The translations under genes and the position numbers were made by a program. This document shows, piece after piece, positions 1 to 53,299 of a DNA stretch of 64,000 nucleotides; position 1 is the first letter of the stretch, and each line of letters starts with the position of its first letter. Location: the NCBI GenBank assembly GCA_039934415.1, contig JBDTME010000002.1:92746-156745 (forward strand). Reading direction: 5' to 3'. The DNA comes from Patescibacteria group bacterium. GTDB taxonomy: Bacteria; Patescibacteriota; Microgenomatia; UBA1400; PJMF01. The notes under the pieces were generated by a model, which worked only from the letters and a program-made list of their open reading frames with translations, did not search any database and had not been told where the DNA came from.

Positions 1-285
1 GCTCAATGATCGCGACGGATGCCGCTAAAAGCGCCAAACCTATCACTGCACCGGTCATTTTTTTGCGAGCACCAGCTATTTTAGCTTCTTCTCCTCCGGC
101 AAGGATCCAATCAACCGCTCCCCAAATTAAGAACAGTAATGTTGCTAAACCACCTACAATAATCAAGGTGCGCCATAGCAACACAATATAGTTAGTGAAA
201 GCTGCGGCTTTATCGGCAGTCCCACCACCATAATTTGGTTGCAAGACTGGGTTACTGATATCTGCAAGTAGGGTTGAAAAAAACA
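1..285 (-). CDS. T4SS pilin-like protein (VirB2/TrbC-type topology); its C-terminus runs off the window edge
   Basis: The minus-strand ATG is at 285. My hand translation of positions 285 down to 1 gives MFFSTLLADISNPVLQ...WGAVDWILAGGEEAKIAGARKKMTGAVIGLALL with no stop. It has the same hydrophobic / GG-acidic-K / hydrophobic architecture as the three paralogs downstream. The plus-strand ORF 6..191 is its antisense shadow. Confidence 0.55.
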
Positions 286-289
286 TATT

Positions 290-676
290 TTATAATTTAC
301 AAGGTGTAGTCGATAAAGGATTTAAGGCGTTAATTGCTGTTCCTGGTGCCAACAGATCGAGTCCAAGTGCTCCTCCGATGACTGCCATGATGCCATAAGA
401 GATGATGACAATAATCAGACCGATCGCTCCGTTGGTCATTTGTTTTTTGGCTGTTTCTACTTTACCTTCATCTCCTCCAGCCAGCGTCCACTGCAGCGCT
501 CCAAATAAAAAGTACAACAAAAAAGCCAAACCTGCTAAGACTGTTAAAAACCCCAATATTAAAGAAATAATGCCTTCTAATGAGTTACACGCTCCGGTGA
601 TTGTGGGATCGAACACGCCAGTACCAGCACCTTGGAACTGACCAATCGAAACGTCTTGTGTTGCAGCAATTAACAT
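290..676 (-). CDS. T4SS pilin-like protein (VirB2/TrbC-type, two hydrophobic helices around an AGGDEGK loop)
   Basis: A 128-aa protein: cleavable-looking N-terminal region, a TM helix, the motif LAGGDEGKVETAKKQMTNG, then a second TM helix. It is one of four tandem paralogs. Confidence 0.55.
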   Translation of the reverse strand: MLIAATQDVSIGQFQGAGTGVFDPTITGACNSLEGIISLILGFLTVLAGLAFLLYFLFGALQWTLAGGDEGKVETAKKQMTNGAIGLIIVIISYGIMAVIGGALGLDLLAPGTAINALNPLSTTPCKL

Positions 677-680
677 AAAT

Positions 681-1055
681 TTATGGGGCGATACCCGTAA
701 TTTTAGGATTCAAAATGAAAGTTGGATCGCCAAAGATAACAAAGCTGGCGACGGCAGTAATCGTAAATGAGCTCACGATAATCACTAATCCAATTAGACT
801 CATGTAAATACTTTGCCAGGCGGTTTCGACAGCTTTCACATCATTCGAAGCAGTGATGTACTTAAAACCAGCCATGATGAGGTTGAAAAGTGACCAAATA
901 CCGGCGATGACAGTAATTAACTTAATGATGTTGGATGCAAAAACGACAATACCGATTTGACCAGCAGCCAGACCTGTTTGATAAGACGCAACACCTGGAG
1001 GAGCTTGAATTGTCCCCCACAGTGAGTCTGCAATTAAGGTACTGAGTAAGAACAT
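681..1055 (-). CDS. T4SS pilin-like protein paralog
   Basis: A 124-aa, two-helix small membrane protein of the same size and topology as its neighbours, arranged in tandem with them. Confidence 0.45.
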   Translation of the reverse strand: MFLLSTLIADSLWGTIQAPPGVASYQTGLAAGQIGIVVFASNIIKLITVIAGIWSLFNLIMAGFKYITASNDVKAVETAWQSIYMSLIGLVIIVSSFTITAVASFVIFGDPTFILNPKITGIAP

Positions 1056-1073
1056 ATGTTTCTTGCGACCAAT

Positions 1074-1394
1074 TTATAAAATCTTCAATCCGGTTAACAA
1101 CTCGACGACTTGAATGATCCAGTACGCACTGAACATCACTACAAACCCAATCAACGCTGATGTAATCTTTTTTTGTCCCTCTTCCACACTCTTTGTTGAT
1201 TCTGAGGAAATTATACTCAATCCACCTGCAATCATCAAGAAAAGAAATATTACCCCTGCTAACAAGAAAATATTAGGCACAATCAGATTAATCAGGGAAC
1301 CCAAATCCTTATACTGTTCACCAACTGACTGAGTGTCGTTGATCTTAATTGCAGTCCCAAGGTCAATAGAGGCTAACAGATTTGACATACTCAC
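1074..1394 (-). CDS. T4SS pilin-like protein paralog
   Basis: A 106-aa protein with IAGGLSIISSESTKSVEEGQKKITSALIGFVVMF between two hydrophobic segments, the same architecture as 290..676. Confidence 0.5.
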   Translation of the reverse strand: MSMSNLLASIDLGTAIKINDTQSVGEQYKDLGSLINLIVPNIFLLAGVIFLFLMIAGGLSIISSESTKSVEEGQKKITSALIGFVVMFSAYWIIQVVELLTGLKIL

Positions 1395-1489
1395 ATTATA
1401 CTACTTTGGACCTCAGGAGGGTAGCAAGGGGCAACCTCTACTCATTTTCAAGTTTAGCCTGGTGCTAGTTCGTCCAAAGATGGGCAAAC

Positions 1490-2083
1490 TTGCTACTTCA
1501 ATCAAAAAGTGTATATAATTCATTCCTCACGATGCAAAATACCGCCTACCAGGAAACTGCGCTCATCATCGACCTTAAACTCGGTTTACCGGAAGCGGTG
1601 GAAATTTGGTATCGCAAGTACACACCAATCATTCAAAAATTTATTAGTTTAAAAATTGATAACAAAAAAGACGTCGAAGAGATTAGTCGGGAAACCTTTT
1701 TAAACAGCTTGCGTGATCTTCCGCTGTTTCAAGGTAAGTCATCACTTAAAACATGGATGTTACGCATTGCCGCTCATGAAGTTGCTGATTACTATCGTCG
1801 CAGATACGCCAAGAAATTTGTTCACTCCATTCCGCTATCCAACTTTCTGTTTCACGAAGATCCCAAAAACATGCATGACACATCTGAGTATGTGGTAGAG
1901 GTACTCAAACGCATGAAGATAGAATACAAACAGCTGATAATCTTAAAATACGTAGAAAATTTATCTGTCAAAGAAATCGCCACTCGTATTCACAAATCAA
2001 TCAAGTCAGTCGAATCTGATTTATTCCGTGCCAGAAAGGAGTTTCGAGTACTGTATCAAACAGTTAGCTCTGAAGTTGTATAA
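1490..2083 (+). CDS. RNA polymerase sigma-70 family factor, ECF-like
   Basis: A 197-aa protein. Region-2-like RIAAHEVADYYRRRY and a C-terminal region-4 helix-turn-helix LSVKEIATRIHKSIKSVESDLFRARKEFR. It is divergent from the pilin array. Confidence 0.7.
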   Translation: MLLQSKSVYNSFLTMQNTAYQETALIIDLKLGLPEAVEIWYRKYTPIIQKFISLKIDNKKDVEEISRETFLNSLRDLPLFQGKSSLKTWMLRIAAHEVADYYRRRYAKKFVHSIPLSNFLFHEDPKNMHDTSEYVVEVLKRMKIEYKQLIILKYVENLSVKEIATRIHKSIKSVESDLFRARKEFRVLYQTVSSEVV

Positions 2084-2092: not shown

Positions 2093-2320
2093 ATGATAAA
2101 AAAACCTGCCGAACCATTTTTACATCAACTCCAAACCACCGCCAAACGACAATCCCGTCTCCAAGACACGTCCGTTTTTCCTCCATTTCTCTATCCACTC
2201 ACCTCATTCATCGGCGAAAAACCATGGCAAACGCTGGTACTTTCATCTTTTCTATTCTCTTGGATAGTCTTTCTTTTGTGGTTTGAATTTTTTTTCAACT
2301 TCGTGCACAATATACTCTAG
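2093..2320 (+). CDS. small single-pass membrane protein, candidate anti-sigma factor
   Basis: A 75-aa ORF starting 10 nt after the sigma gene stop. It has a charged N-terminus followed by one strongly hydrophobic helix. The anti-sigma assignment rests on position alone. Confidence 0.3.
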   Translation: MIKKPAEPFLHQLQTTAKRQSRLQDTSVFPPFLYPLTSFIGEKPWQTLVLSSFLFSWIVFLLWFEFFFNFVHNIL

Positions 2321-2400: not shown

Positions 2401-2712
2401 ATGCAAAAACGGACATTACTCACATCTACTTTCTATAGCGTGCTCCAAGCCTCCGCCGGCTTACTCATCCATCCTTATCAAACCATGCAACACTTAGTCG
2501 AAGACAAGATCTTCATGTGGCTGACCTTTTTACCCATTCTCTTGGTAACCCTGTTTTTCTTTATCTGGTGGCTCGCCCTCCAATCTTTTTTTGCAACCAT
2601 TCCGTACATCGGAGCGTGGGCATTTACACTCATCTGGGGCGGTAGTTTTTTTGTCTTCTGGCAAGTTTTGTTGTTCTATCTCTTCCTACGATTCCTGATT
2701 ACTCTTAAATAA
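2401..2712 (+). CDS. hypothetical polytopic membrane protein
   Basis: 103 aa with 3 predicted hydrophobic helices. Confidence 0.35.
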   Translation: MQKRTLLTSTFYSVLQASAGLLIHPYQTMQHLVEDKIFMWLTFLPILLVTLFFFIWWLALQSFFATIPYIGAWAFTLIWGGSFFVFWQVLLFYLFLRFLITLK

Positions 2713-2857: not shown

Positions 2858-3073
2858 TTGAAAGGCAAAAATATGCAAGTTGCTCGATATTGGAGAATGA
2901 AAGGGAACTTGTATCGCTTAGAGGGCTTCAGAAACTTACAAGATGGTTCAGTCAGTTTGCAACAAAAAAACATTCTGGCTCATGGGAAAGAATCAGAACC
3001 AACGAGTTCAACTGAAAAGACATCAGCCACTAAGCCTGAATCCCAAAAGTTACTACCAATGGAAAAACAATAA
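2858..3073 (+). CDS. hypothetical small protein
   Basis: A 71-aa ORF whose stop overlaps the idi start (ATGA). No recognisable motif. Confidence 0.3.
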   Translation: MKGKNMQVARYWRMKGNLYRLEGFRNLQDGSVSLQQKNILAHGKESEPTSSTEKTSATKPESQKLLPMEKQ

Positions 3074-3711
3074 TGATCAGTCCACACACTATTACTAAAG
3101 ATCCCACTGATCTCGTCACTTTAGTCAATGAAAGAGACGAAGTCATTGGCACCATGGATAAAATCGAAGCTCATAGAGGCGAGGCAAAGTTACACCGTTG
3201 TGTATCGGTCTATTTATTTCAAAAGAATAAAACTGGAGTTGAGTTACTCATCCAGCAAAGAGCTGCAGTCAAAATTGTCGGTGCAAACCAGTGGGCTAAT
3301 ACTATTTGTGGCAATGTTCGCCCTACTGAAGATTATGAACAATGCGCGTACCGACGACTCAGAGAAGAGTTGGGAATTACAAAAGTGGAAATTAAACCCA
3401 TCTACAAATTTGTATATAACCTGCCTTGTAATGAACAATTTAGTGAATGGGAAATGGATCAGGTATTTTTCGGTTGGTATGACGGAGAAGTGATACCCAA
3501 TCCAAACGAAGCACAGGACTTTAGTTGGGTGAAGTGGCAAGAATTGTTAGAAGCAAGCGAAAAAACAAATGCGGATGAACAAAATTTTAAAACCAAGAAA
3601 GTAGAGCTAAAAAATCAAATCAAAACAAAGCATTTCACCCTCACCCCTTGGTTTGTGTGGATGCTAGGAGATAAAAAGCTTATTAATTTATTAAATAAGG
3701 ATATTTATTAA
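3073..3711 (+). CDS. idi: isopentenyl-diphosphate delta-isomerase, type 1 (Nudix fold)
   Basis: Motifs LHRCVSVYLF, LLIQQRAAVK..W.NTICGNVRP and the Nudix box RRLREELGI match IDI-1 signatures. It lies directly upstream of mvk and mvaD. Confidence 0.7.
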   Translation: MISPHTITKDPTDLVTLVNERDEVIGTMDKIEAHRGEAKLHRCVSVYLFQKNKTGVELLIQQRAAVKIVGANQWANTICGNVRPTEDYEQCAYRRLREELGITKVEIKPIYKFVYNLPCNEQFSEWEMDQVFFGWYDGEVIPNPNEAQDFSWVKWQELLEASEKTNADEQNFKTKKVELKNQIKTKHFTLTPWFVWMLGDKKLINLLNKDIY

Positions 3712-3732
3712 CAAATATCTGAAAGGAATGAT

Positions 3733-3960
3733 ATGAGCAACGAGACCACACAAGCAGCGTGGGTATGGATTGAACAACAACCTGACGCTAAAAAAGTTCT
3801 TCACAAATATATTGGAGAAGACACTAGTAAAATTGCTGATCCTGATTTCATAGCAATTGTAAATGAGAGCGGTTTTACAGCAGAAAATCTTTTAAGTGCA
3901 CTTATTCAGAATGATGCTTCAGCAAGTGCTGTGTTTCAATTTTTAATCCCTGACTGTTAA
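3733..3960 (+). CDS. hypothetical small acidic protein
   Basis: A 75-aa ORF with an RBS-like AAAGGAATG context. No recognisable motif. Confidence 0.3.
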   Translation: MSNETTQAAWVWIEQQPDAKKVLHKYIGEDTSKIADPDFIAIVNESGFTAENLLSALIQNDASASAVFQFLIPDC

Positions 3961-4004
3961 AAACAGTCTTAAGCCTGCCCAAATTTCAACTGCTCTGAAT
4001 AAAT

Positions 4005-4976
4005 ATGACACTAATTACTGCTTCTGCACCAGGGAAACTATTATTGTATGGCGACCATGCGGTCGTGTACGGAAAACCGTGCATCGTAACGGCGGTTGAC
4101 CAACGAGTGCACGTCACTGTTAAAAAAAATGGCGTCGATACTTTCCATCTCGATGCACCTGATCTAGGCCTGACAGCATATTCAAAAACAATCAACGATC
4201 TCGGTCAAAAAGAACTCCCGAAATCTGTAGCTTTTATCGAAATTTGTTACAAACGATTTTTGGAAAAATACCCACAACAAGAAGGGATAGTAGTTACGAC
4301 TAAAAGTGACTTTTCTTCTCTGTTTGGTTTTGGCTCGAGCAGTGCCGTCACCGTTGCCTTTGCCAAAGCATTAACAACTTTATATGGGATCACACTGACA
4401 AATAAAGAACTATTTAATCTTTGTTACCAAGCGGTGATCGATGTCCAAGGAGTTGGCTCTGGTTTTGATATCGCTGCGGCAATCTGGGGTGGAACAATCT
4501 ATTACGTCACGCCCGCAAAAGTTGTAAAAGTAGTTTCGTGCCCAGAACTCCCACTAATAGTCGGATATACCGGAGTAAAAGCAGACACCCCCACCTTAAT
4601 TCGGATGGTGGAGTCGCTCAAACAACAAGATTCTTCGAAAATTAAAACGATCTTTAATCATATGTCTAACATTGTTGATGCTGCCTTTCAAACCATTAGT
4701 GAAAGTAATTGGGAAAAAGCTGGAAAACTCATGAATCAGAATCAGCTACTGTTGAGAGAACTTCAAGTAAGTAGCGTAAAATTAGAGTCATTGATTGAAG
4801 CCGCAATTACAGCAGGAGCTTATGGCGCAAAATTGTCAGGTGCCGGTGGAGGAGACTGCATGATTGCTCTTTGCGACAAGAAATATGTAACACCGATAGC
4901 AACTGCAATTGAAAAAGCAGGTGGAAAATATATGGATGTCAACCTCAATGCGCAAGGAGTCAGAATTGAAAAATAA
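4005..4976 (+). CDS. mvk: mevalonate kinase (GHMP kinase family)
   Basis: The N-terminal motif APGKLLLYGDHAVVYGKP is the mevalonate kinase signature. The GHMP ATP-binding loop GFGSSSAV and the C-terminal GAKLSGAGGGDC are present. Confidence 0.8.
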   Translation: MTLITASAPGKLLLYGDHAVVYGKPCIVTAVDQRVHVTVKKNGVDTFHLDAPDLGLTAYSKTINDLGQKELPKSVAFIEICYKRFLEKYPQQEGIVVTTKSDFSSLFGFGSSSAVTVAFAKALTTLYGITLTNKELFNLCYQAVIDVQGVGSGFDIAAAIWGGTIYYVTPAKVVKVVSCPELPLIVGYTGVKADTPTLIRMVESLKQQDSSKIKTIFNHMSNIVDAAFQTISESNWEKAGKLMNQNQLLLRELQVSSVKLESLIEAAITAGAYGAKLSGAGGGDCMIALCDKKYVTPIATAIEKAGGKYMDVNLNAQGVRIEK

Positions 4977-5958
4977 ACTCATCAAAACTACTGCAAAAGC
5001 TTCCTCTGATGTCGCGCTCATCAAATACTGGGGCAAAAAAGATGAAAGCCTGAGACTGCCAGAAAACAGTAGCATCTCTTTGATTTTGGATGGTTTAGAC
5101 ACTGTCACCACAGTTGAGTTTCAAGAAAAACTTACTGAAGATTTGATAACAATTCAAGGAGAGAGTGAAGAAGGTGAGGCATCGCGAGTCAAACAACACT
5201 TGGATCGTATTCGAAAACTAGCTGGCTTGAACATGTACGCAAAAGTAGTTTCAAATAACACCTTTCCAAAAGGAACTGGCTTATCAAGTTCTGGCTCTGG
5301 TTTTGCAGCACTCACGTACTCCGCAACTAAAGCAGCTGGACTTGATTTATCTGAAAAAGAGTTGAGTATTTTATCTCGACAAGGCTCGGGGACAGCATGT
5401 CGATGTGCGTGTGGAGGGATCGTTCAGTGGAAAGATGGTGACACTTCCGAAACTTCTTTTTCAAAAAGTCTGTATCCCTCCGATTACTGGGATATCCGCG
5501 ACGTGATCGCAGTCGTCGACGAAGGAAAGAAAAACACTTCATCAACTCAAGGTCATGCCACAGCCCAAACGAGTGTCTTTTACCAAGCACGCCAAGAAAA
5601 TTTAGATAAAAAAATTGGTGCATTAAAAAATGCTTTGACCAAAAAAGACTTTTCAAAACTGGGTGCCATTGTTGAAGCAGAAGCACTTGAATTTCATTCG
5701 ATTTTATTAACTAGTCATCCTCCTTTAGTTGCCTGGTACCCTGGAACAATTGCTGTGATGTTAGAAGTACAAGCAATGAGAAAAGATGGAATAGAAGCGT
5801 ATTTTACGATCAACACCGGTTTCAACGTTCACATTTTAACGACGCCTGAATTTGAAAAAAAAGTTCAAAAAAGAATTGAGCAGTTGCCGTTAGTGAAAAA
5901 AACCTTGTCCGCAACCATCGGTGAAAAACCCACATTTTCATCAACACACTTATTTTAA
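4936..5958 (+). CDS. mvaD: diphosphomevalonate decarboxylase
   Basis: VALIKYWGKKDE plus GTGLSSSGSGFAALT match the MVD family. The ORF opens at 4909; a start at 4936 or 4948 overlaps the mvk stop by only a few codons. Confidence 0.8.
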   Translation: MSTSMRKESELKNKLIKTTAKASSDVALIKYWGKKDESLRLPENSSISLILDGLDTVTTVEFQEKLTEDLITIQGESEEGEASRVKQHLDRIRKLAGLNMYAKVVSNNTFPKGTGLSSSGSGFAALTYSATKAAGLDLSEKELSILSRQGSGTACRCACGGIVQWKDGDTSETSFSKSLYPSDYWDIRDVIAVVDEGKKNTSSTQGHATAQTSVFYQARQENLDKKIGALKNALTKKDFSKLGAIVEAEALEFHSILLTSHPPLVAWYPGTIAVMLEVQAMRKDGIEAYFTINTGFNVHILTTPEFEKKVQKRIEQLPLVKKTLSATIGEKPTFSSTHLF

Positions 5959-5971
5959 AGAAAGGGCTATT

Positions 5972-6544
5972 ATGGCTGACGTTAAAGAGCAAGAAATTAT
6001 TATTCACATGACACCTACTGGTGAAATGGTTGGCCCTGTTGGGCGTGAGGATGCGCACAATAAAGAAAATCCAATTCCCCACGCAGTGGTTTTCACTTTA
6101 CTTGCGACAAAAAATAAAGTTGATGGTCAACTCGAAAAAGGACTTTTTCAAGTTAGAGGAGAGCAGGTAAAAGCTTATCCTGGGTATTTAACACTGACCG
6201 CAAGTGGTCACATACAATATGAAGAGGGCAAACCAATATCTCAAATTGCTCTAGAGAATGCTTTCAGAGAAACTGCAGAAGAGACTGGTTTAGTTGAAAA
6301 CTTCCCGTTTGAACTCGCAGCCCAAGGATTTTTGGGCATAGAGAAAGATCAACAATACATGTTTATCTTTCTTGCCTATGTTGATGAGTTACCTACGTCT
6401 CTATCTACTCAAGAGGCAGAAGTAAAGAAAATGCTTACACTAAAACTCGGTGAATTGATGGAGTTTATTCAAAATGGGAAAGTGACACCTTTTGCCTTAG
6501 AAGCACTAAGATTAATGGGAATTATTCCTTCAGAAAGTAGTTAA
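5972..6544 (+). CDS. Nudix hydrolase, IDI-like paralog
   Basis: Nudix box ENAFRETAEETGL. The IDI-like segments NPIPHAVVFTLL and PGYLTLTASGH are present. The ORF opens at 5921, but the MADVKEQ start at 5972, with an upstream AAAGGG, avoids overlap with mvaD. Confidence 0.55.
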   Translation: MADVKEQEIIIHMTPTGEMVGPVGREDAHNKENPIPHAVVFTLLATKNKVDGQLEKGLFQVRGEQVKAYPGYLTLTASGHIQYEEGKPISQIALENAFRETAEETGLVENFPFELAAQGFLGIEKDQQYMFIFLAYVDELPTSLSTQEAEVKKMLTLKLGELMEFIQNGKVTPFALEALRLMGIIPSESS

Positions 6545-6558
6545 AGAGCCAAAAACCT

Positions 6559-7257
6559 ATGACCCATACAACTAGCATTCCACAACATATCGCGATTATC
6601 ATGGATGGCAATCGTCGATGGGCAAAGCAGCATAAGTTGCAGGCTCTGCAAGGGCATCAGTACGTCACTGAAAAGGTCATAGAGCCATTGGTTGATGCGT
6701 GCGTGGAGTTTGGCGTTCCATATCTGACTCTGTGGGCGTTTAGCACTGAGAACTGGAAAAGAGATCAATCTGAAGTCGAAGGGTTGATGAAGTTGTTCCG
6801 GAGAGCATTTGCGAAAAGTGTTCAGGATCTGCACAAAAAAGGCGTCCGACTGAACTATATCGGTGATTTAACAAAATTCCCCAAAGATATTCAGGAGAGC
6901 GTAGCAGAGTGGATTGAGATTTCAAAAAACAATACCAAGATCACTGTTACATTTGCACTCAATTATGGTGGGCAAGATGAAATTCTTCGTGCAATCAAAA
7001 AAGCCGCTCAAAATGGAGAAGAGCTGCAAAACATCACTGCCGCAGAATTTTCCCAATATCTCGATACCAACACCATACCTGATCCGGATCTACTCATCCG
7101 CCCGGGTGGAGAACAACGACTTTCGGGGTATCTTCCTTGGCAAAGTGTCTATGCAGAACTCTACTTCACTGACATTCTTATGCCGGATTTTGGTAGAGAA
7201 GAGCTCCATAAAGCAATAGAGGAGTACGGAAATCGATGGAGAAGATTTGGGAAATAA
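6559..7257 (+). CDS. uppS: isoprenyl transferase / undecaprenyl-diphosphate synthase
   Basis: HIAIIMDGNRRWAK and the C-terminal RFG motif are hallmarks of cis-prenyltransferases. Confidence 0.9.
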   Translation: MTHTTSIPQHIAIIMDGNRRWAKQHKLQALQGHQYVTEKVIEPLVDACVEFGVPYLTLWAFSTENWKRDQSEVEGLMKLFRRAFAKSVQDLHKKGVRLNYIGDLTKFPKDIQESVAEWIEISKNNTKITVTFALNYGGQDEILRAIKKAAQNGEELQNITAAEFSQYLDTNTIPDPDLLIRPGGEQRLSGYLPWQSVYAELYFTDILMPDFGREELHKAIEEYGNRWRRFGK

Positions 7258-33759: not shown

Positions 33760-35364
33760 CTATTCGTATGCTGTTATTTGTTCAGTTGGAACTCCACCCG
33801 AGAGTGATGTTCTGACTGCCTGGACTTGGGTTCGTAATTCTTCATTTGCGGGAAGTGCCTCTTCAATTTTTTTGACTGCGTGCATGACGCTGGTGTGATC
33901 ACGATCTCCGAAGTAACGGCCAATCTCAGCAAATGGTAAATCTAAGTGGTGTTTGATCAGGTACATGGCGATGTGTCGTGCATTGGCGATTGGCTTTGAT
34001 CGTTTTGGCCCTTTGATATCCATGAGTTTGATGTGGTATTGATTGGAAATTGTTTTAATAATTTCAAGTGGTTTGGCGTAGATCTTTTCTTGTTTTTGAT
34101 CAGTGACCTGGTGTTGTCGCAAAATTTCTTGAACGAGATCATGGGTAATTGGTTTGTGGCGCAGGACGTGTTCTGAGTGGAGAGCTTTGACGATGCCTTC
34201 AAGTTTTCGAGTACTGGTGATGGCTGATGCAATGCGCTGAGCGATATCCATGGGAATCGAAAACTGAATTTGTTTGGCTTTGATCAACACAATCGCAATA
34301 CGTAACTCGAAAGACGGTTGTTGAATGTCGATGCTGAGTCCGCCTTCTAATCGTGATTGGATACGATCGTCCAGTGGACTGATTTCGTGTGGAGGCCGAT
34401 CGGAAGTTAGAATAACTTGGCCACGCGATTTCAACACTGAGTTAAAGGTGTGGAAAAACTCTTCTTGCATGGCGCGTTTCCCAGCCATGAACTGAATGTC
34501 ATCAATCAGTAAAATTTGCACCGATCGGTATCGCTGTTTCATCTGGATTGTTTTTTTTGTCTGAATCGCCTCCACAATCTCATTCATAAACTCTTCACCT
34601 GTTCGATAAATCATCGTGAAGTTTTGGTTGTTTTTTAAAATGTTTTGGCCAACGGCCTGCATCAGGTGTGTTTTGCCGACACCCACACCTCCATAGAGAA
34701 AGAGTACGTTATACGCTTTGCCCGGGTTTTGAGAGACTGCAACGGCTGCAGCGTGTGCCATTTCATTGGTGGATGAGACCGCGAACGTATCAAAAGTATA
34801 ATTTTTATTCAAGCCAGCTTGCTGGATTTTATAATCCACCAAATCTTCACCAGCTTGTTGAATACTAGCTTGGGAGAAAAGTGAAGCCACCGTGGGCGAA
34901 GATGGTTCATCAAGCGCTGTCTGATTCTCAGGCACATTGAGTTCTAATGATTGTTGGTCGATAGAAGTGGCTTTGCGCGATTTATGGGGAGTTGTAGGAA
35001 GAGTAAAATCGCCGACCTTGAGCTTGAGTTCAACCGGTTTTTCCACAATGGCACTAATGCAGTCTGTAATCGCAGCCTTGAAGCTTTTTTCAATGATTGA
35101 GATATGAAAAGAAGTAGGGGACTCAATCGTGCAAATCACTTTGTCCTCGACCTCTTGAACATCCGACAAGACATTCGGGAAAATCCAGGTTTTAAATACC
35201 CCTTGGGAAAGGTTGGCAGCAAGTTCTGCACAGACTTTTCCCCATAGCTCTTCAGGTGAGTAGATCATAGATTGAAATAGGTTTTTCTTGAGGAAGCTCT
35301 GATAAAATTGGGGCAGGAGATCGTACTTTTCCACACTATACACTGAGTTTTGCACAATGCGCAA
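33760..35364 (-). CDS. dnaA: chromosomal replication initiator protein DnaA
   Basis: AAA+ Walker A GGVGVGKTHLMQA, Walker B LLIDDIQF and a C-terminal DnaA-box-binding HTH region. Confidence 0.9.
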   Translation of the reverse strand: MRIVQNSVYSVEKYDLLPQFYQSFLKKNLFQSMIYSPEELWGKVCAELAANLSQGVFKTWIFPNVLSDVQEVEDKVICTIESPTSFHISIIEKSFKAAITDCISAIVEKPVELKLKVGDFTLPTTPHKSRKATSIDQQSLELNVPENQTALDEPSSPTVASLFSQASIQQAGEDLVDYKIQQAGLNKNYTFDTFAVSSTNEMAHAAAVAVSQNPGKAYNVLFLYGGVGVGKTHLMQAVGQNILKNNQNFTMIYRTGEEFMNEIVEAIQTKKTIQMKQRYRSVQILLIDDIQFMAGKRAMQEEFFHTFNSVLKSRGQVILTSDRPPHEISPLDDRIQSRLEGGLSIDIQQPSFELRIAIVLIKAKQIQFSIPMDIAQRIASAITSTRKLEGIVKALHSEHVLRHKPITHDLVQEILRQHQVTDQKQEKIYAKPLEIIKTISNQYHIKLMDIKGPKRSKPIANARHIAMYLIKHHLDLPFAEIGRYFGDRDHTSVMHAVKKIEEALPANEELRTQVQAVRTSLSGGVPTEQITAYE

Positions 35365-35791: not shown

Positions 35792-37729
35792 CTACCCTTG
35801 TGTCTGTTGTTTTCGATCCGCTAACACTTTTGCTTGGGCGGCTTGTTGGTCGTTCATTTTTTGTTTGGCGAGTAATTCTTCTGGGTTGGTCGTAATCAGT
35901 TGATGTTCAGTGTCTGAAGCAATGACGCGCAGCGCCACGTGATTTTGACCAGCAAAGAAAATTCCTTCTCCCACATCTGAAGCTAAGAGTAGTCGTTGTT
36001 CACCTTCCGAAAGATAGAATGTTTGGGTCAAAATAGGCATCGAGGCACTTGATTGTTTCATCAAGAATTGAATCGAAGAGTTGGTCACGATGGCTTTGCC
36101 GTAATCGTTATTCAAGAAATCCTCTACATCCTGAGTGATTGTGGTAATACCCAAGAAGTATTTTCTGGCGCGTTTGGCGATGGAGTGGAGGAATGAGGCC
36201 GAATCGGCATACTTCATGAAGTACCACGCCTCATCAACAATCAAAATTCTTTTTTTCAGTTTTTTCTTTACACGAGTCCAGATAAAGTCCAAGATCATGA
36301 ACATTGCAATTGGACGCAGTTCTTCGTGTAAATCTTTAACCGAAAAAACCGTAAACGCGTTATGAATATCTAGATTTGATTTTTGGTCAAAAATACCGCG
36401 GAATGAACCTTTAATAAATTTCTCCAGTCGAGCAGATAAATTGAGCGCGTCTTGCGTCTCCATACCAATCAGGGCTTTATACAAGTCTTCCATTAATGGA
36501 GGCTCATTGGCTTGAGTTGCTGGATCTGGAGTAATGCCTTTGGCTTTATATGCTGCTACCAACGCTTGATCAAGAATAGCGTCTTCGGTTGGAGTCATCT
36601 CGCCCATCATCACTCTCAACAATGTGTGCAAAGAAATGATTTTTTGGCCTAGCTCGTTTTCGCCTTCTTCATAAACATTCGATAAATCAAATGGGTTGAT
36701 CTTGGTAGTGGCGCCGAAAGTGAAGTTAATATACTCGCCACCGACTGATTTACACAACTCTTCATACTCATGTTCAGGATCGAGAATCAAAATGTCCGCA
36801 CCAAAAATGAGTTGACGGAGGGCTTCGAGTTTAATTGTATATGATTTTCCAGCACCAGATTTGGCAAAGACGACCATGTTAGCATTTTCCAAACTGAATC
36901 GGTCAAAAATAACCAACGAACCATTATGCTCATTTAGACCATACACAATCCCATTATCTTGAGTCAATTCTGAAGACGTAAATGGAAACGTCGTTGCTAA
37001 AGAAGTCGTGTCCATGTTGCGCGTGATGAGTAACCGATCAACTCCCATTGGGAGTGTTGTTTTGAAACCATCTTCCATTTGTAGAGATGCTTTTTTGGAC
37101 ACAATGAGCAAACTTCCCAGCAATGATTGGAGTTGTTTACTACTACTCTCAAGCTTTTCTTTCGAGGTGTCCATTAACGTACAGTACAGACCAAACTGAT
37201 AGAAACGCTCAGAGCCTTTGGCGAGCTGTTCTTGCAGGGTGCGCGCATCTTCGAGCTTCACTTCCGTATTAATGTTGCTAATTTTCCCCGAACGAATGTC
37301 TGACTGAATTTCCGCTTCCATCTCCGTAATTTTGCGACGAAGATTGTCCAGAATCTTGTCGACCTCTTGGGGAAATATGTACATGCTAATATCGAGACGG
37401 TGCGGAAAATTAATTAACGGTGACAACCAATTTGCCGGGACTGTTCTGGGATACCCGGCGATGAAAAAGGTTCTAGTGTAAGTCGAGTTGATTTTTTGAT
37501 AAGTAAAGTCGACCTCAATTGCTTCTGGGGCGATGATGTCCTGAATGCTCACCAATCCTTGCGCAAACTGTTTCAAGACCTTCTGGTTTTCCAGGTCTTG
37601 TGTTGCTTTCTGTTGCTCTTCTTGAGAAACGGGTTTCTTTTTCAAAAAGGGCAGTGGTAGGTTGATTGAGAATTTGGGCATCACTCGATTAATTATCCAT
37701 GCCTGGTTGTGGCGTACTTGGCATTTCAC
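35792..37729 (-). CDS. type IV secretion system ATPase, VirB4/TrbE/PrgJ family
   Basis: Walker A VVFAKSGAGKSYT, Walker B RILIVDEAWYF and an overall 645-aa VirB4-like domain organisation. Confidence 0.8.
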   Translation of the reverse strand: MKCQVRHNQAWIINRVMPKFSINLPLPFLKKKPVSQEEQQKATQDLENQKVLKQFAQGLVSIQDIIAPEAIEVDFTYQKINSTYTRTFFIAGYPRTVPANWLSPLINFPHRLDISMYIFPQEVDKILDNLRRKITEMEAEIQSDIRSGKISNINTEVKLEDARTLQEQLAKGSERFYQFGLYCTLMDTSKEKLESSSKQLQSLLGSLLIVSKKASLQMEDGFKTTLPMGVDRLLITRNMDTTSLATTFPFTSSELTQDNGIVYGLNEHNGSLVIFDRFSLENANMVVFAKSGAGKSYTIKLEALRQLIFGADILILDPEHEYEELCKSVGGEYINFTFGATTKINPFDLSNVYEEGENELGQKIISLHTLLRVMMGEMTPTEDAILDQALVAAYKAKGITPDPATQANEPPLMEDLYKALIGMETQDALNLSARLEKFIKGSFRGIFDQKSNLDIHNAFTVFSVKDLHEELRPIAMFMILDFIWTRVKKKLKKRILIVDEAWYFMKYADSASFLHSIAKRARKYFLGITTITQDVEDFLNNDYGKAIVTNSSIQFLMKQSSASMPILTQTFYLSEGEQRLLLASDVGEGIFFAGQNHVALRVIASDTEHQLITTNPEELLAKQKMNDQQAAQAKVLADRKQQTQG

Positions 37730-38885
37730 CTACTTTACCTATTGGTGGTGTTCCGGCTTGATTGAGAGTCTGGTCAATGACACTTTGTGGGTCAGGCATC
37801 GTTGACGAATTCACTGCGGACGTCATTGGTGTTTCAGGTGGTGTTGAGACGGTTGGCGACTCGCTTACAGAGCTACCTGGCATCGCGGCTGGCGTAGTCG
37901 CACTTGGAACAGCAGGGACTTCAGGGGTGCTCATGGGAGCAGGTGAAGTAGATGCCATTTGAGGTGGTGTTGCAAAACCAAGATCTGTTTTCGTAAAATC
38001 TGGCATTTCTGGTGTGGTGCTCATGGGCGTTGGAGCAGCTGGAGTCGCTGGCGCAGCCGTGAATGCTGGTGTTTCGGTCATGGTTGGAGTAGGAACGCTA
38101 GGAGCTGGAGCTGGTTGCATCGTTGGATTTGGTTGTGCTGCCGGAGTTGGTTGAAGACTTGTTGGCATGGTTGGGGTGTCAATCATAAAATCTCCTTGGA
38201 TTTTTGCCTGGACGAGAGGCGTAGTATAATTTGCTGTATCCGTTACTTTTTGACCTTCAAACGACTCAGGGTTGTATGAAGAGTATAGCATCTGGATCAG
38301 TTCTTGAGTGGTAAGTTGTCTGGAATACAAACCAATTCTGGCTAGTTGGTCGATAAGGTGATCGCGACGTGGTATCAGATTCGTTTTGGCTTTTTCAATG
38401 ATGTAATTCTTTTCAAAACTCGACAGCGACTTACTTTTGGCACCAGGAATGACACTCTGTGTGGTGAGACCCATCTCAACTGCTGACAGTGGGATGATGA
38501 TGTAAAACTTCTTATCCAGAACGTTTTGATCTTGAACGAGTGACTCCACAAAAGAATGGTACTCTTTTATTTTTTGTCTATAGATTTGGTTTGTCGCCGT
38601 GTCTTCTAAATCTTGAATTTTTTTGAGATAGGCTGTCACGTCTTTTGGTTGAGAACGGATGACGATCTGGATCGGATAACTCAATGAGTTAAGCAAAGCA
38701 GCATAAGCGTAAATCGTCGCGTCTTGTTCACCTTCCGAGAGAAGACCGAAGTTCATCGCAGAGACCGTAATGACGAGTGATGCTGCTCCATCGCCAAGAA
38801 TAATCAGATCATTGGTAATGTCGTACAGATCCAGGAAGAGCTGAGTGGTGGAATTGCTGACGGTATCAGTTTTTTGCTTTGCCAT
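37689..38885 (-). CDS. hypothetical T4SS-associated protein with a Pro/Thr/Ala-rich C-terminal half
   Basis: Its stop overlaps the VirB4 start by 41 nt (translational coupling). The ~240-aa N-terminal globular part is followed by a low-complexity PTPAAQP-type region. Confidence 0.4.
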   Translation of the reverse strand: MAKQKTDTVSNSTTQLFLDLYDITNDLIILGDGAASLVITVSAMNFGLLSEGEQDATIYAYAALLNSLSYPIQIVIRSQPKDVTAYLKKIQDLEDTATNQIYRQKIKEYHSFVESLVQDQNVLDKKFYIIIPLSAVEMGLTTQSVIPGAKSKSLSSFEKNYIIEKAKTNLIPRRDHLIDQLARIGLYSRQLTTQELIQMLYSSYNPESFEGQKVTDTANYTTPLVQAKIQGDFMIDTPTMPTSLQPTPAAQPNPTMQPAPAPSVPTPTMTETPAFTAAPATPAAPTPMSTTPEMPDFTKTDLGFATPPQMASTSPAPMSTPEVPAVPSATTPAAMPGSSVSESPTVSTPPETPMTSAVNSSTMPDPQSVIDQTLNQAGTPPIGKVGEMPSTPQPGMDN

Positions 38886-38922: not shown

Positions 38923-39990
38923 TTACTCACTTGCTCGTATTTCGATTGGGTCAAGAATAGTGTTATTAAGCTCAAGTTTCTGAGTTGGAAACAGTATACC
39001 TTCTTTCTCTGCTTTCATAAAATACTCACCATTTTTGAGAGGAGTGCTGATGTAAAACTGTCCAATTTTGTTTGTTCTGACTGCGCGAACTGGCATGCCT
39101 TGATCGTCAGCAATTTCAACAATAGCGTTTTCAACGATGTTGCCAACCTGGTCAAACACCATACCGACAACAATGTTGGGTTGTGTTGGTTTCTTGGGAA
39201 AGGGGAGAGTGTCAGATGTTTGAACGTTGAGTGCAGCTGAGTGTTGTGCTGTGGGATCATCAACAACTAGAGAAGCGGCATTAAAAACGTCTACTACTTC
39301 TGAAGTAGTTTCAGGTGCAGGTGCTTCTACCGGAACAGTCACTTCTTCAATACTTGGCGGAAGAGTCTCCGGAATTTGTTCAGCTGTCAATCTTTCGTCT
39401 TCGTAAGGAACATTGGTTTTAAAGAGATTATCAAATTGTTGTAGTGGATGTTGTTGTGCTGTAAGGTCTGGTTTGGTTAGTAGTTCAACGGCATCTACTG
39501 TTTCGACGTGTACAGTGTCGAACAGCGATAGGACCGCACTCATCTGCTGGGCTTCTTGGTATGCCAGTGGATCTAAAGCAGACTCATCTGGAAGAGTGTG
39601 AATATACTCATAAATACGCTGTTGTTTTAAAGGAGATAAATCAAGTTCGTCTTGAAACGTCGTAGTTTCTTTCGTGGTATATGTTAAGTAGTCGGGCAAG
39701 TTACCTGATTTTCTCCAATAAAAGAGTGTTGGTTTATAAATTGCTCGAAATAAAGCGATGAACCATTGGTCGAGTGGACGGCCTTCATAGGGAACGAACG
39801 CGATCATTGCCCCAAGTCCAACGAAAAAAACAATCAGCGGCCACTTGATTACGCTATATAAATTCGTTTGATAAATCACCACTCCTAACAAAATTCCCGC
39901 ACCCAACTCCAAAAACTGCTTGAGCGTCATGTTCCCAATCAGGTGAAATTCGTAGCTAGTGACAGCTTGTGGTATCGGATGATCTTGCAT
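38923..39990 (-). CDS. hypothetical membrane protein: a PrgI/VirB3-like 2-TM N-terminus and a C-terminal carboxypeptidase-regulatory-like beta domain
   Basis: The two N-terminal hydrophobic helices occupy the position and size of VirB3/PrgI upstream of VirB4. The C-terminus carries the motif NKIGQFYISTPLKNGEYFMKAEKEG. Confidence 0.35.
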   Translation of the reverse strand: MQDHPIPQAVTSYEFHLIGNMTLKQFLELGAGILLGVVIYQTNLYSVIKWPLIVFFVGLGAMIAFVPYEGRPLDQWFIALFRAIYKPTLFYWRKSGNLPDYLTYTTKETTTFQDELDLSPLKQQRIYEYIHTLPDESALDPLAYQEAQQMSAVLSLFDTVHVETVDAVELLTKPDLTAQQHPLQQFDNLFKTNVPYEDERLTAEQIPETLPPSIEEVTVPVEAPAPETTSEVVDVFNAASLVVDDPTAQHSAALNVQTSDTLPFPKKPTQPNIVVGMVFDQVGNIVENAIVEIADDQGMPVRAVRTNKIGQFYISTPLKNGEYFMKAEKEGILFPTQKLELNNTILDPIEIRASE

Positions 39991-40078: not shown

Positions 40079-41137
40079 TCATTCTACCTTAACGGCTGGT
40101 GAGATAGCTTCGACGTTAAAGATGCTATTGTTTTTGTCTTTTCCAACGCCGTAAAAATGGATGTATGGCAGAATGTATCCATTCTGTTCGTTTTGTCTGT
40201 ACTCCAAGGTGGCCGAGCTAAACTCAACATTGGAGAGGTTCTCGGCATTTGGTTCAATAGCATCAAAGTTTCCTGCGTGAATATAGGTGATGAGACCGGC
40301 AAGCATCCTATCCTCGACTCCACCAAGCCCCAGAGAGTTTACGATTTGTACTTGTTCAAAACTGCTTGGAACAGGATAAAAGCTGATTTCTAAAATACTT
40401 GCATTTTTGTCAACTCTAATGATCGCTGGAGATTGAACCTTATCACTGGAAATGAATGGAATATTGTCTACTAAAGTGTTGAGTGTAATTTTGTACGCAT
40501 TTGTTGAAGCCTCGTCTTTTGCTGGTTCAGTACTTTCTGGATTTACGCTTTGAGGTTCTGGTTCTGAAAGTGTGTAGTTTTGGAACAACTGGTGTTCGTC
40601 GATAAACGACCGAATTTTTTTTGCTATTTCCTCATGAGTTACGGTTGCCGTTTTGGGTAAAGTATCATCTAAAATGCTGAGCAGAATGTCTTTCTTATAC
40701 GCAATGAGTGTCGCGTTGCCACTCGTTGTCAACTGATATTCTTGGTTGGCATCTTGCCAAGCGTTGCTTGTCCCAGGTACTGGAGTAAGCGGAAGTTGCT
40801 TAGCGAGTTTTTGTATGGTTGTTTCAATTGTTTCTGGTTGCAAGGCTTGATAAACAGCCAGCTTGCTAGGCATGCTCATTGTCAAGTTCTTATCGAAAGT
40901 GATTTGTGCTTTATATGTTTTTTCTGTAGTGACCACGGTTTCCGCTGGAGGAGGTGTTGGTGTCAGTGCCTGCAAAATAGCCGAAATAACAACAGCCAAA
41001 CCCATTATTACAATAAACACTCTCAACCATTTCTTCTGAAATAGTTTTGTGATGAATGATGGAAGTTGCAATCGATTATTTTCCATAATATTCGTCACAT
41101 CTTGGTCCTTCAGGTACTTTGCCAGCAGTGCTGACAC
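40079..41137 (-). CDS. hypothetical membrane-anchored protein (T4SS locus)
   Basis: 352 aa with one N-terminal TM helix. Its start overlaps the end of the preceding gene (41076..41137). Confidence 0.35.
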   Translation of the reverse strand: MSALLAKYLKDQDVTNIMENNRLQLPSFITKLFQKKWLRVFIVIMGLAVVISAILQALTPTPPPAETVVTTEKTYKAQITFDKNLTMSMPSKLAVYQALQPETIETTIQKLAKQLPLTPVPGTSNAWQDANQEYQLTTSGNATLIAYKKDILLSILDDTLPKTATVTHEEIAKKIRSFIDEHQLFQNYTLSEPEPQSVNPESTEPAKDEASTNAYKITLNTLVDNIPFISSDKVQSPAIIRVDKNASILEISFYPVPSSFEQVQIVNSLGLGGVEDRMLAGLITYIHAGNFDAIEPNAENLSNVEFSSATLEYRQNEQNGYILPYIHFYGVGKDKNNSIFNVEAISPAVKVE

Positions 41138-44100
41138 CTAATGTTTGAATTAAGGCATAGTCACTCAAACCTCTAATCTCATAGTGTAAGTGATTTCCAT
41201 CAGATGCTCCACCAGGACCATGCGTACTATCAACATGACCTACTAATTGTCCACCCTCAACCGTTTCGCCCACGTGGACGACGATTCCACCATCAATCTG
41301 ATGGGCGTAATAAGAAAGCCAACCACCGTGATCAATGACTAACAGATTGCCAAACGCATTATTGTCACGTTTAGTGGTGACAACTGTAACAACGCCTGGT
41401 GCAGCGGCGTAGATAGGAGTGTTTAATGGAGCCGCAATGTCGTAGGCGTCAGGACGAACTTTGAATCCGCCACAATGACTCCAACTTGGATGTGTAATAC
41501 ATTGTTGAGTTAAAACTGGGTGACTTATGGGACCAGTACCATATGGAAGTTGAGTCACCCTCCCTTTTACAGGCCAACAAGGAGGAACGGTTGTTGTCGG
41601 ACAATCTCCAAAACAGGTCTGTGCCCGACTGGTACTGCTGTCAGCTTGACCAGCTGCGGTGATGTTTGCCTTAATATCATTTTTGACCAAAGAATCACTA
41701 AAACGAGAGTCTGATGCATCGACGGTGAATTGAAGATGAATCGGCTGATCTGCTGTGAGTGGTTGGCCTGCCAAAGCAGCGAGTTGGTCAGTGAGTTCCT
41801 GAGGGAGAGCTGGCGGATCAATCACGTTCGAATCTTTATCAATTGCACTCATAGTATCTGTGAGTCCCGTAATGACGATCTCTTCCGTTGCCTCAGGTTT
41901 TTTGGAGAGGTCAATTGTGTATGTGATCGGACCTTGCGCATTAGAGTTGCTGGGTTGGGCAGTTTTTTTCAAAGTGATGTATCGCGATTCGTCAGCATCT
42001 AGCGAAAAGTATGGTGCGACTTGAGTGACGCTGGCATCGGGGAGGAAAGCGCTTAGGATCATGGATGTGGTGAAGATGTTTGCGATGACAATAGTTACTA
42101 GTGGGATGCCAACGGCAGCAGCTATAGTAGCCGTAGAGCCTGTGATACCTTGTGCAGTCAGTGTCTGTGCAGCTCCTTCTAAGAAGCCTGTAGTTTGACC
42201 CGCTGCAGTTGAAACTGCCGGTCTGGCAAAGTTGCTTAGTGCAGCTTTAGTACTTGATGGAAGAGCGCTCGCATAACTAGATGTACTTCCGGCATCAGAG
42301 GCGCCTTTCATAAATCCTGCTATGCCGCCCGCGATTGCTCCAACACTTGCCCCGATGGCTGTTCCAACCACTGGAAAAAAAGAGCCAATGATTCCACCGG
42401 CCACGGCACCACCAGCCACACCACCAAGTGTTGTGCCTGCCACACCCTGCACCATGTTTGTGATGATTCCGTAAATGGCTGCACCAGTTCCGGCAGCACC
42501 ACCAACGACAAGCACACCTTTTTTAAGCTGTGATGAGCCAATTTTTGTAGCCGTCCCCTGAAGACTAGCGGCATTGAGATTTCCTATGCCCTTGGCTCTG
42601 CCTAACCAGTCTCTTAAATTACTTAATCCTTGAACATTTCCTACCTGTGGAGCGTTCCAAGATTGATGTGGGACTGCTGTGTCATATAAAGCCTTATTGA
42701 AAGCCGCACGACCTTGATTGTCGAGCTGAGTTTGTCCTGCCGGAAGAAATTGCTGGCGATCAACCCCCAACATATTGCTGTAAAAGACTTGTTCTTGTTC
42801 ATCAAGATTGTTAATTTGTGCCTGTAACTGGTTGAGATACTGATTGCGAACGTAGAGCGCCTCAGCTCTCAGAAATTTTTCTTGTTCTGAAGCTTCTGCT
42901 GGAGTAATTGCCAAATCTCGAGTGAAAAAAGCATGAGCCAGAACTTTATCTGTATTGGCTTTATATTTGGGGGAATACGTTTTGATCAATTCTCGATATT
43001 GCTCCGTGGAAAGAGAGAGGGGTGTTGTCTCTCCGGGCTCAAGGCTATGAGTAAGTAAATTATTTTGGGTGTAGTTTGCCAACGCATGTTTTCGTTGCGC
43101 GACGTACGACTCCATGATCTGTAAAACCTCTTGATTGTTTCTGAGACTAGGATCGAGCTCGTTGAGCATGACCTTAAGATTGTCAGAGAGGAGATGAGGA
43201 CTACCGAGTGATAACGCGTAAGAATCAAGAGTATTGAGAATATTTATTTCAGCGGAGCCATCTTTATTATAAGTTCGTAATAAAGAGACGAGCGCTTCTT
43301 TGGGATTGTCTTTGCTGAAGCGTTGAAACTTGGCAAAGTTTTCGAAGTTGGCTTGAGTTACTGTTTTGCCATTTGTCTGCAATTGTTTGAGATAGACATC
43401 TATTTGTCCGAGCAGTTTTTTGCGTTCATCTGCTCCGAGAGAAAAAATGTTTTCTGGAAAGATCTGACGGAGTTCAAGAGGATCTAAGGCAGAGATTCCA
43501 GTCCCTTTCGTTCTTGGAGCTCGTCTCAAAATTTCATCGCCGAGGTTTTCGATTGACTCTGCAGAAACCATTGCTTCAAAAGTCGCAATTTGCTTGAGTT
43601 GCTTTTTAAACTCTTGTTTGGCGAGTTCTGAGTAATCTTGTGGAGCATCTTCTGAGTCGATTTTTTCTGAAAAGAGTTGGGTGGCATCCTCGGCAGTTTT
43701 AAGTGATCCTTTGAAACTCGTGTCGTTAAAAGCCTTGAGTTCAAACTTCTCTTTTAAAATTTCAGTTTTTAAGAGAAAGTACTCGTTGTTGCATAAGCGC
43801 TTATAAATTTGATCAACGTGTGAAAGCAGTTGTTGTCGGATCGTAATTCTGTCGGTGATTGATAGCCGGCCAGATTCAGCAAGTAGCAATGCGAATTGAG
43901 GGTTTTCTTGAAGATAGAGAGAAATGACTCCTGCAATATCCTCTTGGAGCGAGAATAATTGAAAGTCGAGTTGTCTTTGTTCATCGGCTGGTAGTTTGTT
44001 GTAAAACGTTCGCCAATCAGCGACATCTAGAGCCGAGTTCAACACTTCATTCATCAGGGCGCCAGAGTCTCTCCAACCTTCTTGAGCGGCGATTTTTTGA

Positions 44101-53285: not shown

Positions 53286-53299
53286 GGTATAATATCTTT

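Follow-up and report, generated by a model that had tools for sequence, protein, structure and literature searches.

A tandem array of VirB2-like type IV secretion pilin genes back to back with an ECF-type sigma factor gene in a Patescibacteria genome

Introduction

The type IV secretion systems (T4SSs) of Patescibacteria have a monoderm (MPF-FATA-like) core, which is often encoded near dnaA and usually comes without a relaxase (PMC12102498). VirB2-like pilins were detected in 1,948 Patescibacteria assemblies (near virB4 in 1,135), and 441 pilin arrays of 2–11 genes were reported from 383 assemblies, their identity averaging 25% and reaching 54% at most, such arrays being especially common in Microgenomatia and Saccharimonadia (PMC12102498). 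For Candidatus Southlakia epibionticum, the primary study describes a predicted pilin series as one that growth as an epibiont requires (PMC10633639); a review puts the number of VirB2-like pilins in this organism at six and presents a pilus in Patescibacteria as only a possibility (PMC12857230). Here we describe an array of such pilin genes at the start of a stretch of 64,000 nt from an uncultured, ultrasmall Patescibacteria group bacterium of the Candidate Phyla Radiation, Microgenomatia/Woesebacteria-like and represented by a metagenome-assembled genome (GenBank assembly GCA_039934415.1, contig JBDTME010000002.1, positions 92,746 to 156,745 of the forward strand; hereafter the window), together with the sigma factor gene that lies back to back with it.

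Like the published arrays, the locus combines at least two tandem genes matching a pilin profile (here at least six, 23–48% identical) with low identity among the copies and a VirB4 encoded in the genome. Given the 441 arrays already known, it is another case of a described kind and adds nothing new on the existence of pilin arrays. What is worth following is the positional orthology of its genes and the conserved sigma module beside them, in a group where the T4SS has proved indispensable to epibiotic growth in the only species so far examined for it.

Results and discussion

The window opens within a six-gene pilin array

Four successive open reading frames (ORFs) occupy positions 1..1394 on the minus strand, the gaps between the genes being just 3, 4 and 18 nt. 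Numbered outwards from the sigma gene, array position 1 (1074..1388) encodes 104 amino acids from the ATG at 1388, or 106 amino acids from the GTG at 1394 (ORF 1074..1394), position 2 (681..1055) encodes 124 amino acids, and position 3 (290..676) encodes 128 amino acids and is named 'hypothetical protein ABI425_03080' of a Patescibacteria group bacterium by NCBI, while position 4 (<1..286) is present as its 5′ part. All four products reach the gathering cut-off (26.6 bits, whole-protein score) of the Pfam family PF18895, 'Type IV secretion system pilin' (T4SS_pilin), scoring 26.7, 27.0, 34.7 and 26.8 bits for positions 1 to 4 respectively, and orthologues of each occur in numerous independent metagenomes, so that these are real genes and not chance ORFs. 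Orthologues of positions 1 and 2 were found at the corresponding positions of seven other arrays (at 35–72% identity for position 2), and those of position 4 include L003_4 (71%) and L006_5 (67%).

The array continues beyond the window. A Logan contig (L001) that is 100% identical to window positions 1..1916 reaches 1,017 nt past the window start; it completes the position 4 gene to 118 amino acids and adds a paralogue of 130 amino acids followed by one of at least 142 amino acids with a classical Sec signal peptide, which brings the array to at least six genes. Locus L003, from a GTDB genome whose sigma factor is 78% identical, carries exactly six array genes at the same place, with a seventh pilin some kb farther and then a 1192-amino-acid protein. 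The window thus holds the two thirds nearest the sigma gene of what we take to be an operon of six genes for VirB2-like T4SS_pilin proteins. A first-pass annotation, read from the DNA alone, had described four consecutive minus-strand paralogues of about 95 to 128 amino acids with a two-helix architecture; the four ORFs, the two transmembrane (TM) helices in each product (identity 23–48%) and the upper size were borne out, whereas the 95-amino-acid gene was an artefact of the window edge and the array is larger than the four genes visible here.

Membership of the family extends well beyond the window. Each of the 31 homologues of the 128-amino-acid pilin matches PF18895, as do most genes of the related arrays, and NCBIfam NF045849 ('Mbov_0395 family pilin-like conjugal transfer protein') gave sub-threshold matches for three array genes (27.1 bits for 290..676). 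Kyte–Doolittle profiles show two TM helices and a short loop in each array protein, and in an AlphaFold2 model of the 128-amino-acid protein the helices span residues 24–65 and 70–104, with a predicted local distance difference test score above 90 in the hairpin and of 77 on average. The common layout consists of a variable N-terminal tail, the first TM helix, a short loop of the form GGD/E-x-GK...A-R/K-x-K, the second TM helix and a variable C-terminal tail. None of the four array genes matched PF04956 (TrbC/VirB2) at E<=1, and the fold searches were non-specific, so that a likeness to solved conjugative pilins (VirB2, TraA) could not be demonstrated by them.

Pilins of the PilA type were also considered and ruled out, the array proteins having no class III signal peptide (G↓F/M-T-L-x-E) and two TM helices instead of one; no N_methyl or pilus-type pilin Pfam match was obtained for any of the four. 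The word 'pilin' in the first-pass annotation thus holds in the VirB2/TrbC-like, type IV secretion sense (PF18895, four of four genes) and not in that of the type IV pilus.

Both tails of these pilins would face outwards and the loop would be cytoplasmic. Such an N-out/C-out topology fits the orthologues and three fusion proteins (see below) in which signal peptides and ectodomains are placed N-terminal to the hairpin, and fits a 275-amino-acid ORF of locus L010 (4426..5253, minus strand; same contig as L023) that contains both the position 4 and the position 5 hairpins. This ORF may be a natural fusion, hinting that the subunits of positions 4 and 5 adjoin in the assembly, or may be an assembly error. 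The four N-termini in the window read MFFSTLLAD, MFLLSTLIAD, MLIAATQD and MSNLLASID. In the arrays of L003 and L006–L011, too, positions 1–5 start with a short conserved M-x(2-6)-[LI][LI]-A-[QD] (also MTLFSTLLAQ and MIFSLLAQ), which resembles the end of a signal peptide or the ALA↓Q cleavage site of VirB2, and some pilin orthologues carry a full signal peptide and Cys-rich inserts.

We place at about 0.7 the probability that the array genes encode VirB2-like pilin subunits which are associated with the T4SS and make up a fixed, heteromeric set. Several points weigh against this. The margin over the PF18895 cut-off is only 0.1–0.4 bits in three of the four genes, the array lies about 35 kb away from virB4, and the pilins of positions 1–5 have no normal signal peptide and no n-region, a classical signal peptide being found in position 6 alone (L001). 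To our knowledge, moreover, no pilus has been observed in any Patescibacterium. Taken with the non-specific fold searches, the bare margins and the distance from virB4 could mean that these are small two-TM membrane proteins unrelated to T4SS pilins, the Pfam match reflecting hydrophobic composition. We regard this as very improbable: all four genes and dozens of orthologues match PF18895 over the full length of the model, conservation of the loop motif GGD-x-GK...ARxKIT goes further than mere hydrophobicity would explain, a weak match to PF04956 TrbC was also seen in one member of the family, and the genome encodes a T4SS for which the window otherwise holds no other pilin candidates.

The paralogues are old and keep their order

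We compared the six array genes with the arrays of seven other genomes (L003, L006–L011). Reciprocal best hits sort the pilins by array position (1, 2, 3, 4/5, 6 and last), in an order identical in all eight genomes and kept even where the adjoining sigma factors are merely 46–78% identical. Orthologues share 34–74% identity, as against 23–48% for the paralogues of the window array, one pair of which gave no BLAST hit at all. The paralogues are therefore old, each array position forming an orthologue group of its own in these sequence comparisons: the duplications predate the split of these lineages, and each copy has been retained since. A search for recombination tracts between the paralogues at the nucleotide level, the check suggested by the first-pass annotation, found none, the longest common stretch being 30 nt at 73% identity.

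Old positional paralogues, spaced by 3–18 nt and preceded by a single conserved promoter, point to a co-expressed heteromeric set and not to a switching repertoire. We infer that the array encodes a fixed set of subunits with specialised roles, much like major and minor pilins. The first-pass annotation had offered antigenic or functional diversification of a major pilin; functional diversification, in the form of such a fixed set, is the better fit to the positional orthology.

Under the antigenic alternative, any of the paralogues could act as the major pilin, and switching or recombination among them would vary the exposed surface or the host range. The pattern of divergence suits this idea, since it is concentrated in the predicted exposed tails (mean column identity within orthologue groups of 0.47–0.72 in the hairpin, 0.08–0.24 in the N-tails and 0.09–0.40 in the C-tails); the tandem virB2/trwL paralogues of Bartonella and Anaplasma have been read in this way (cited in PMC12102498), and the 2025 survey put the same thought forward as speculation (PMC12102498). 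Yet orthology between positions is one to one in eight genomes, with orthologues more alike than paralogues, the copies have no nucleotide tracts in common beyond the short stretch given above, and the narrow gaps behind one conserved promoter imply that all copies are co-transcribed. Every pilin subunit of the Southlakia cluster is, moreover, reported as essential (PMC10633639). Antigenic variation is accordingly an improbable account of the array. The fixed, ordered and anciently diverged paralogues point instead to a heteromeric structure and supply subunit-specific orthologue groups for structural modelling.

A sigma factor gene and two small membrane-protein genes on the other strand

Divergent from the array, at 1532..2083 on the plus strand, lies the gene for an extracytoplasmic function (ECF)-type (group IV) sigma-70 factor of 183 amino acids that consists of the sigma2 and sigma4 domains only (Sigma70_r2, 31.8 bits; Sigma70_r4_2, 46.5 bits). 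It scores 52.7 bits against TIGR02937 sigma70-ECF (cut-off 42.9), reaches no specific equivalog cut-off, and is 100% identical to a protein listed by NCBI as 'RNA polymerase sigma factor' of a Patescibacteria group bacterium, from the metagenome-assembled genome that also holds the position 3 pilin, on a contig of 163,572 bp; one orthologue at 46% identity is labelled Candidatus Woesebacteria. The gene had been recognised as sigma-70/ECF at first pass and placed at 1490..2083; its type stands, and its start moves from the TTG at 1490 to the ATG at 1532, as given by NCBI and the homologues.

Nine nt after the sigma gene follows a 75-amino-acid single-pass membrane protein (2093..2320, plus strand), with a basic N-terminal part of about 45 amino acids (6 K/R versus 3 D/E), one C-terminal TM helix and next to no ectodomain. 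The two genes abut or overlap in relatives. A small protein was present 3′ of the sigma gene in all eight loci examined closely, with invariant F9, L13, Q14, A17, Q20, L23, P30, W45 and Q46, and in 46 of 65 metagenome loci; proteins of this kind measure 58–75 amino acids. Short single-pass anti-sigma factors such as CnrY have a similar N-in, basic arrangement. The protein matched no Pfam or NCBIfam family at E<=1, and thus no recognisable anti-sigma domain, and no annotated relative was found in Pfam, NCBIfam, PADLOC or a profile search of 5.8 billion proteins, in which all 43 homologues were unnamed and domain-less. The anti-sigma candidate of the first-pass annotation hence keeps its single TM helix, its position and its N-in topology, on which it rests as a candidate, and shows no homology to any known anti-sigma family.

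The third gene on the sigma side (2401..2712, plus strand) encodes a 103-amino-acid multi-TM protein with the motif HPYQTMQ and no Pfam match. Proteins of this kind (about 105 amino acids) are encoded within 1.2 kb 3′ of the sigma gene in 55 of the 65 loci.

Conservation of the sigma–array pairing

The sigma gene stands back to back with a pilin array of six to eight genes in nine of ten genomic contexts (L003 and L006–L013; sigma homologues 42–78% identical), the array lacking only in P0044. A metagenome scan with the sigma alignment returned 80 loci, 50 of which extend at least 1.5 kb upstream and could be used for the array count; an array was present in 44 and missing in six. These six loci also lack both downstream membrane genes, the small protein and the HPYQTMQ protein, and they form one clade nested in the sigma tree, so that the pairing looks ancestral to this sigma subfamily and lost once. 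Two things tell against leaning on these counts: the loci all come from one part of the phylum and are partly near-duplicates (L026/L044/L045; L070/L075; L010 and L023 on one contig), so that 44 of 50 overstates the number of independent observations, and a conserved neighbourhood is by itself no proof of regulation.

The pairing could also be an inherited gene order without functional meaning, the sigma module serving, for instance, the isoprenoid/mevalonate genes that usually follow it. NUDIX, mevalonate, AA_kinase and prenyltransferase genes do follow the module in the window, in L006–L010 and in L012, and the restriction of the loci to one part of Patescibacteria is in keeping with simple inheritance. 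However, the sigma–array pair is intact in L011 and L013, where other genes occupy the two outer flanks (RecF-like, Fic and ligase genes downstream; mevalonate or UppS genes beyond the array), and loci with the pairing occur on either side of the deepest split in the sigma tree, with a single loss that took two small membrane genes along. We consider mere inheritance of gene order rather unlikely, and somewhat favour a functional coupling, of one sort or another, between the sigma module and the array. In the window, the genes 3′ of the module (3073..7257, plus strand) appear by eye to encode Nudix/IDI-like, mevalonate kinase and diphosphomevalonate decarboxylase proteins; the same neighbourhood of relatives contains, by Pfam, GHMP kinase, MVD-like, HMG-CoA reductase, AA_kinase and prenyltransferase genes.

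In the literature searched we found no earlier description of the array–sigma pairing. The word 'sigma' has no occurrence in the array survey (PMC12102498), and in the four passages listed for it in Wang et al. (2023) it denotes a reagent supplier (PMC10633639). Tentatively, the sigma factor, its single-pass partner and the HPYQTMQ protein might make up an undescribed regulatory module dedicated to the T4SS pilin array of Patescibacteria and ancestral to the sigma subfamily. An anti-sigma factor devoid of an ectodomain could, for example, respond to the pool of pilin hairpins present in the membrane or to contact with a host through the T4SS; the sigma factor might then tune genes of the T4SS or of epibiosis. 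The sigma gene with its small membrane protein, compact and widely conserved, is an obvious candidate regulator of the pilin system, and a dedicated module would provide the first regulatory handle on an essential machine of these bacteria.

Promoters and control of the array

A TATAAT −10 box read from the sequence lies at 1395..1400 on the minus strand, 6 nt before the ATG at 1388, a distance that makes a leaderless mRNA probable. A perfect TATAAT precedes the first pilin start by 2–11 nt (mostly 7–10) in 40 of 47 loci, often as TATAAT-ACCAT. A conserved −35 element is absent, the 45 nt upstream carrying essentially no information in 41 alignable loci. On the other strand, the sigma gene is preceded by a promoter-like site, TTGCTA-N18-TATAAT (1490..1519, plus strand), with a 10/12 match to the consensus and conservation in L003. 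The array would accordingly form a single transcription unit behind a −10-only TATAAT promoter, with an mRNA that is probably leaderless.

The layout is also found elsewhere: GGTATAAT-N6-8-ATG stands 5′ of the gene for an M23 peptidase (GGTATAAT-N8-ATG) and of one fusion-pilin gene, both described below. As a side observation, promoters of this lineage appear to be −10-only in general, with (G)GTATAAT 6–10 nt before the start codon and no Shine–Dalgarno sequence (1395-1400, 44780-44790 and 53285-53299 in the window; 47 loci), which suggests that leaderless mRNAs are widespread in it.

ECF sigma factors normally need a specific −35 element (GAAC-like) and a CGT-like −10 element. No ECF-type promoter common to the sigma gene and the array was found, the TATAAT boxes alone being conserved, and as far as the DNA tells, the array promoter looks like the general type of the organism and not like an ECF-type one. 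The generic, −10-only promoter hence does not support direct ECF control. Under such control, the sigma factor would be held by the single-pass anti-sigma factor until an envelope or host-contact signal and would itself transcribe the array. The divergent pairing kept in most loci, the joint loss of the array, the small ORF and the HPYQTMQ protein in one clade, and the N-in, basic, single-pass nature of the small ORF are all what one would expect of it. The array promoter, though, combines a perfect TATAAT with a −35 region of zero information and probably gives a leaderless transcript, the same arrangement serves the M23 and fusion-pilin genes, the sigma gene has its TTGCTA-N18-TATAAT site and no ECF-type autoregulated promoter, and the small ORF is without homology to known anti-sigma domains. 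Direct transcription of the array by this sigma factor is, on balance, unlikely. Of the envelope-stress control of pilin expression hinted at by the first-pass annotation, what finds support is the strongly conserved neighbourhood (9 of 10 and 44 of 50 loci), and the promoters speak against direct control.

Other forms of coupling fit the layout of the intergenic region. In several relatives the sigma and pilin start codons are 22–26 nt apart, with −10 boxes overlapping on opposite strands, which makes coupling through a compact bidirectional control region possible. The array and the module could be co-expressed from such a region, or the sigma/anti-sigma pair could sense the state of the pilins or the envelope and control other targets.

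The T4SS core and fusion pilins elsewhere in the window

The T4SS core of this genome is encoded at 35.8–44.8 kb, next to dnaA (33760..35364, minus strand; DnaA domains), which is the arrangement highlighted by the 2025 survey (PMC12102498). It comprises, all on the minus strand, a VirB4-like T4SS ATPase (35792..37729; TraG P-loop 95 bits, AAA_10 43.4 bits), a 398-amino-acid protein (37689..38885) without a Pfam match, a PrgI/VirB3-like protein of 355 amino acids (38923..39990; PrgI 31.6 bits, cut-off 27), a 352-amino-acid protein (40079..41137), again without a Pfam match, and a 1231-amino-acid M23 peptidase that is likely the cell-wall hydrolase of the cluster (41076..44771; Peptidase_M23 64.9 bits). 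The array subunits would most likely be extracted from the membrane and assembled by this monoderm-type system, with its VirB4-like ATPase, PrgI/VirB3-like protein and M23 hydrolase, into a pilus-like or envelope-spanning structure that would serve an epibiotic lifestyle; this view of assembly and epibiosis draws on the published transposon-sequencing result in Saccharibacteria and on what is known of the family.

Three tandem 'fusion pilins' of 265, 413 and 278 amino acids (51191..54136, plus strand) score 29.9, 26.4 and 64.3 bits with a hidden Markov model built on the six paralogues, and 26.3, 22.1 and 32.0 bits with PF18895. All three combine a Sec signal peptide and a Cys-rich ectodomain with a T4SS_pilin hairpin at the C-terminus, and the 278-amino-acid protein also touches PF04956 TrbC with 16.6 bits, under the cut-off of 27.9. 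These proteins may be adhesin-bearing pilin subunits. A similar fusion-pilin pair adjoins a SpoIID gene in L007 and L008.

Straight after the fusion pilins comes a 1248-amino-acid ORF (54195..57941, plus strand) that belongs to no Pfam family and lacks an evident signal peptide. Homology is likewise absent between it and the giant proteins (872 to >1160 amino acids) that trail the pilin arrays of relatives; these are homologous to one another and are encoded after the last pilin in L003 (332..3910, minus strand) and in the first ~3 kb of L007–L010 and L012. The giant proteins gave no Pfam or PDB match, and that of L003 has an SLT-like motif near its C-terminus, seen by eye and unconfirmed. A counterpart in the source genome would fall beyond the window start. 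The contig carrying L003 (CAZOWX010000002.1) bears the GTDB label 'uncultured Pseudomonadales bacterium', which is probably wrong, its gene content matching this Patescibacteria lineage.

Upstream of the fusion pilins, a GC-rich island (50130..51050; 0.48 versus ~0.41) with long ORFs on both strands may be acquired DNA; it includes a 271-amino-acid ORF (50167..50982, plus strand) whose product appears to be a multi-TM protein bearing an acidic tail. At 49193..50001 (minus strand) the translations suggest, by eye, a toxin–antitoxin-like pair, in which a 134-amino-acid ORF possibly of the PIN/VapC type (N-terminus MTYLVDTNILLRLF) overlaps the upstream 135-amino-acid ORF by 4 nt. Neither tRNA genes nor Rfam families were detected in the 64-kb window.

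Comparison with known systems

The array pilins resemble Agrobacterium VirB2, RP4 TrbC and F TraA in their size (about 70–130 amino acids), in the hydrophobic hairpin of helices, whose termini lie on the same side and whose short loop is basic and cytoplasmic, and in an assembly presumed to depend on a VirB4-family ATPase. They differ from them in the lack of a PF04956 match, in the lack of a long cleavable leader in pilins 1–5 and in their monoderm host; VirB5, VirB7, VirB9 and VirB10 were not seen here, and the fold searches yielded no demonstrable structural match. With the major and minor pilin operons of type IV pili and of type II secretion pseudopili there is a functional analogy only: ordered paralogous small subunits, presumably for one heteromeric filament, are encoded in both cases, whereas the fold and family are unrelated and the array has neither a class III signal peptide (G↓FTLIE) nor a prepilin peptidase logic.

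Several diverged tandem genes of the VirB2 family also occur as the virB2/trwL genes of Bartonella (Trw) and Anaplasma, where they accompany a non-conjugative T4SS for host interaction. Those genes belong to diderm intracellular pathogens and are read as a means of surface variation; the copies described here were fixed long ago, keep their order and appear to be co-transcribed, in line with a heteromeric set.

The CnrH/CnrY pair provides a close parallel for the sigma side, with a small sigma factor of sigma2 and sigma4 domains followed at once by an N-in, single-TM protein with a cytoplasmic part of about 45 amino acids. In our locus, by contrast, the small protein has no homology to an anti-sigma family, no ECF-type promoter motif was found and no periplasmic sensor partner was identified.

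The closest match is with the published arrays of Patescibacteria (PMC12102498), including that of Candidatus Southlakia epibionticum ML1 (PMC10633639): about six tandem two-helix genes of the PF18895 type with low identity, in a Patescibacterium with a monoderm-type T4SS beside dnaA. The Southlakia series is reported to lie inside the T4SS cluster, unlike the array described here, at ~35 kb from virB4. Beyond what these arrays have been described to contain, our locus shows a strict positional orthology of the pilin genes and, back to back with them, an ECF-type sigma factor gene accompanied by those for a small TM protein and an HPYQTMQ protein.

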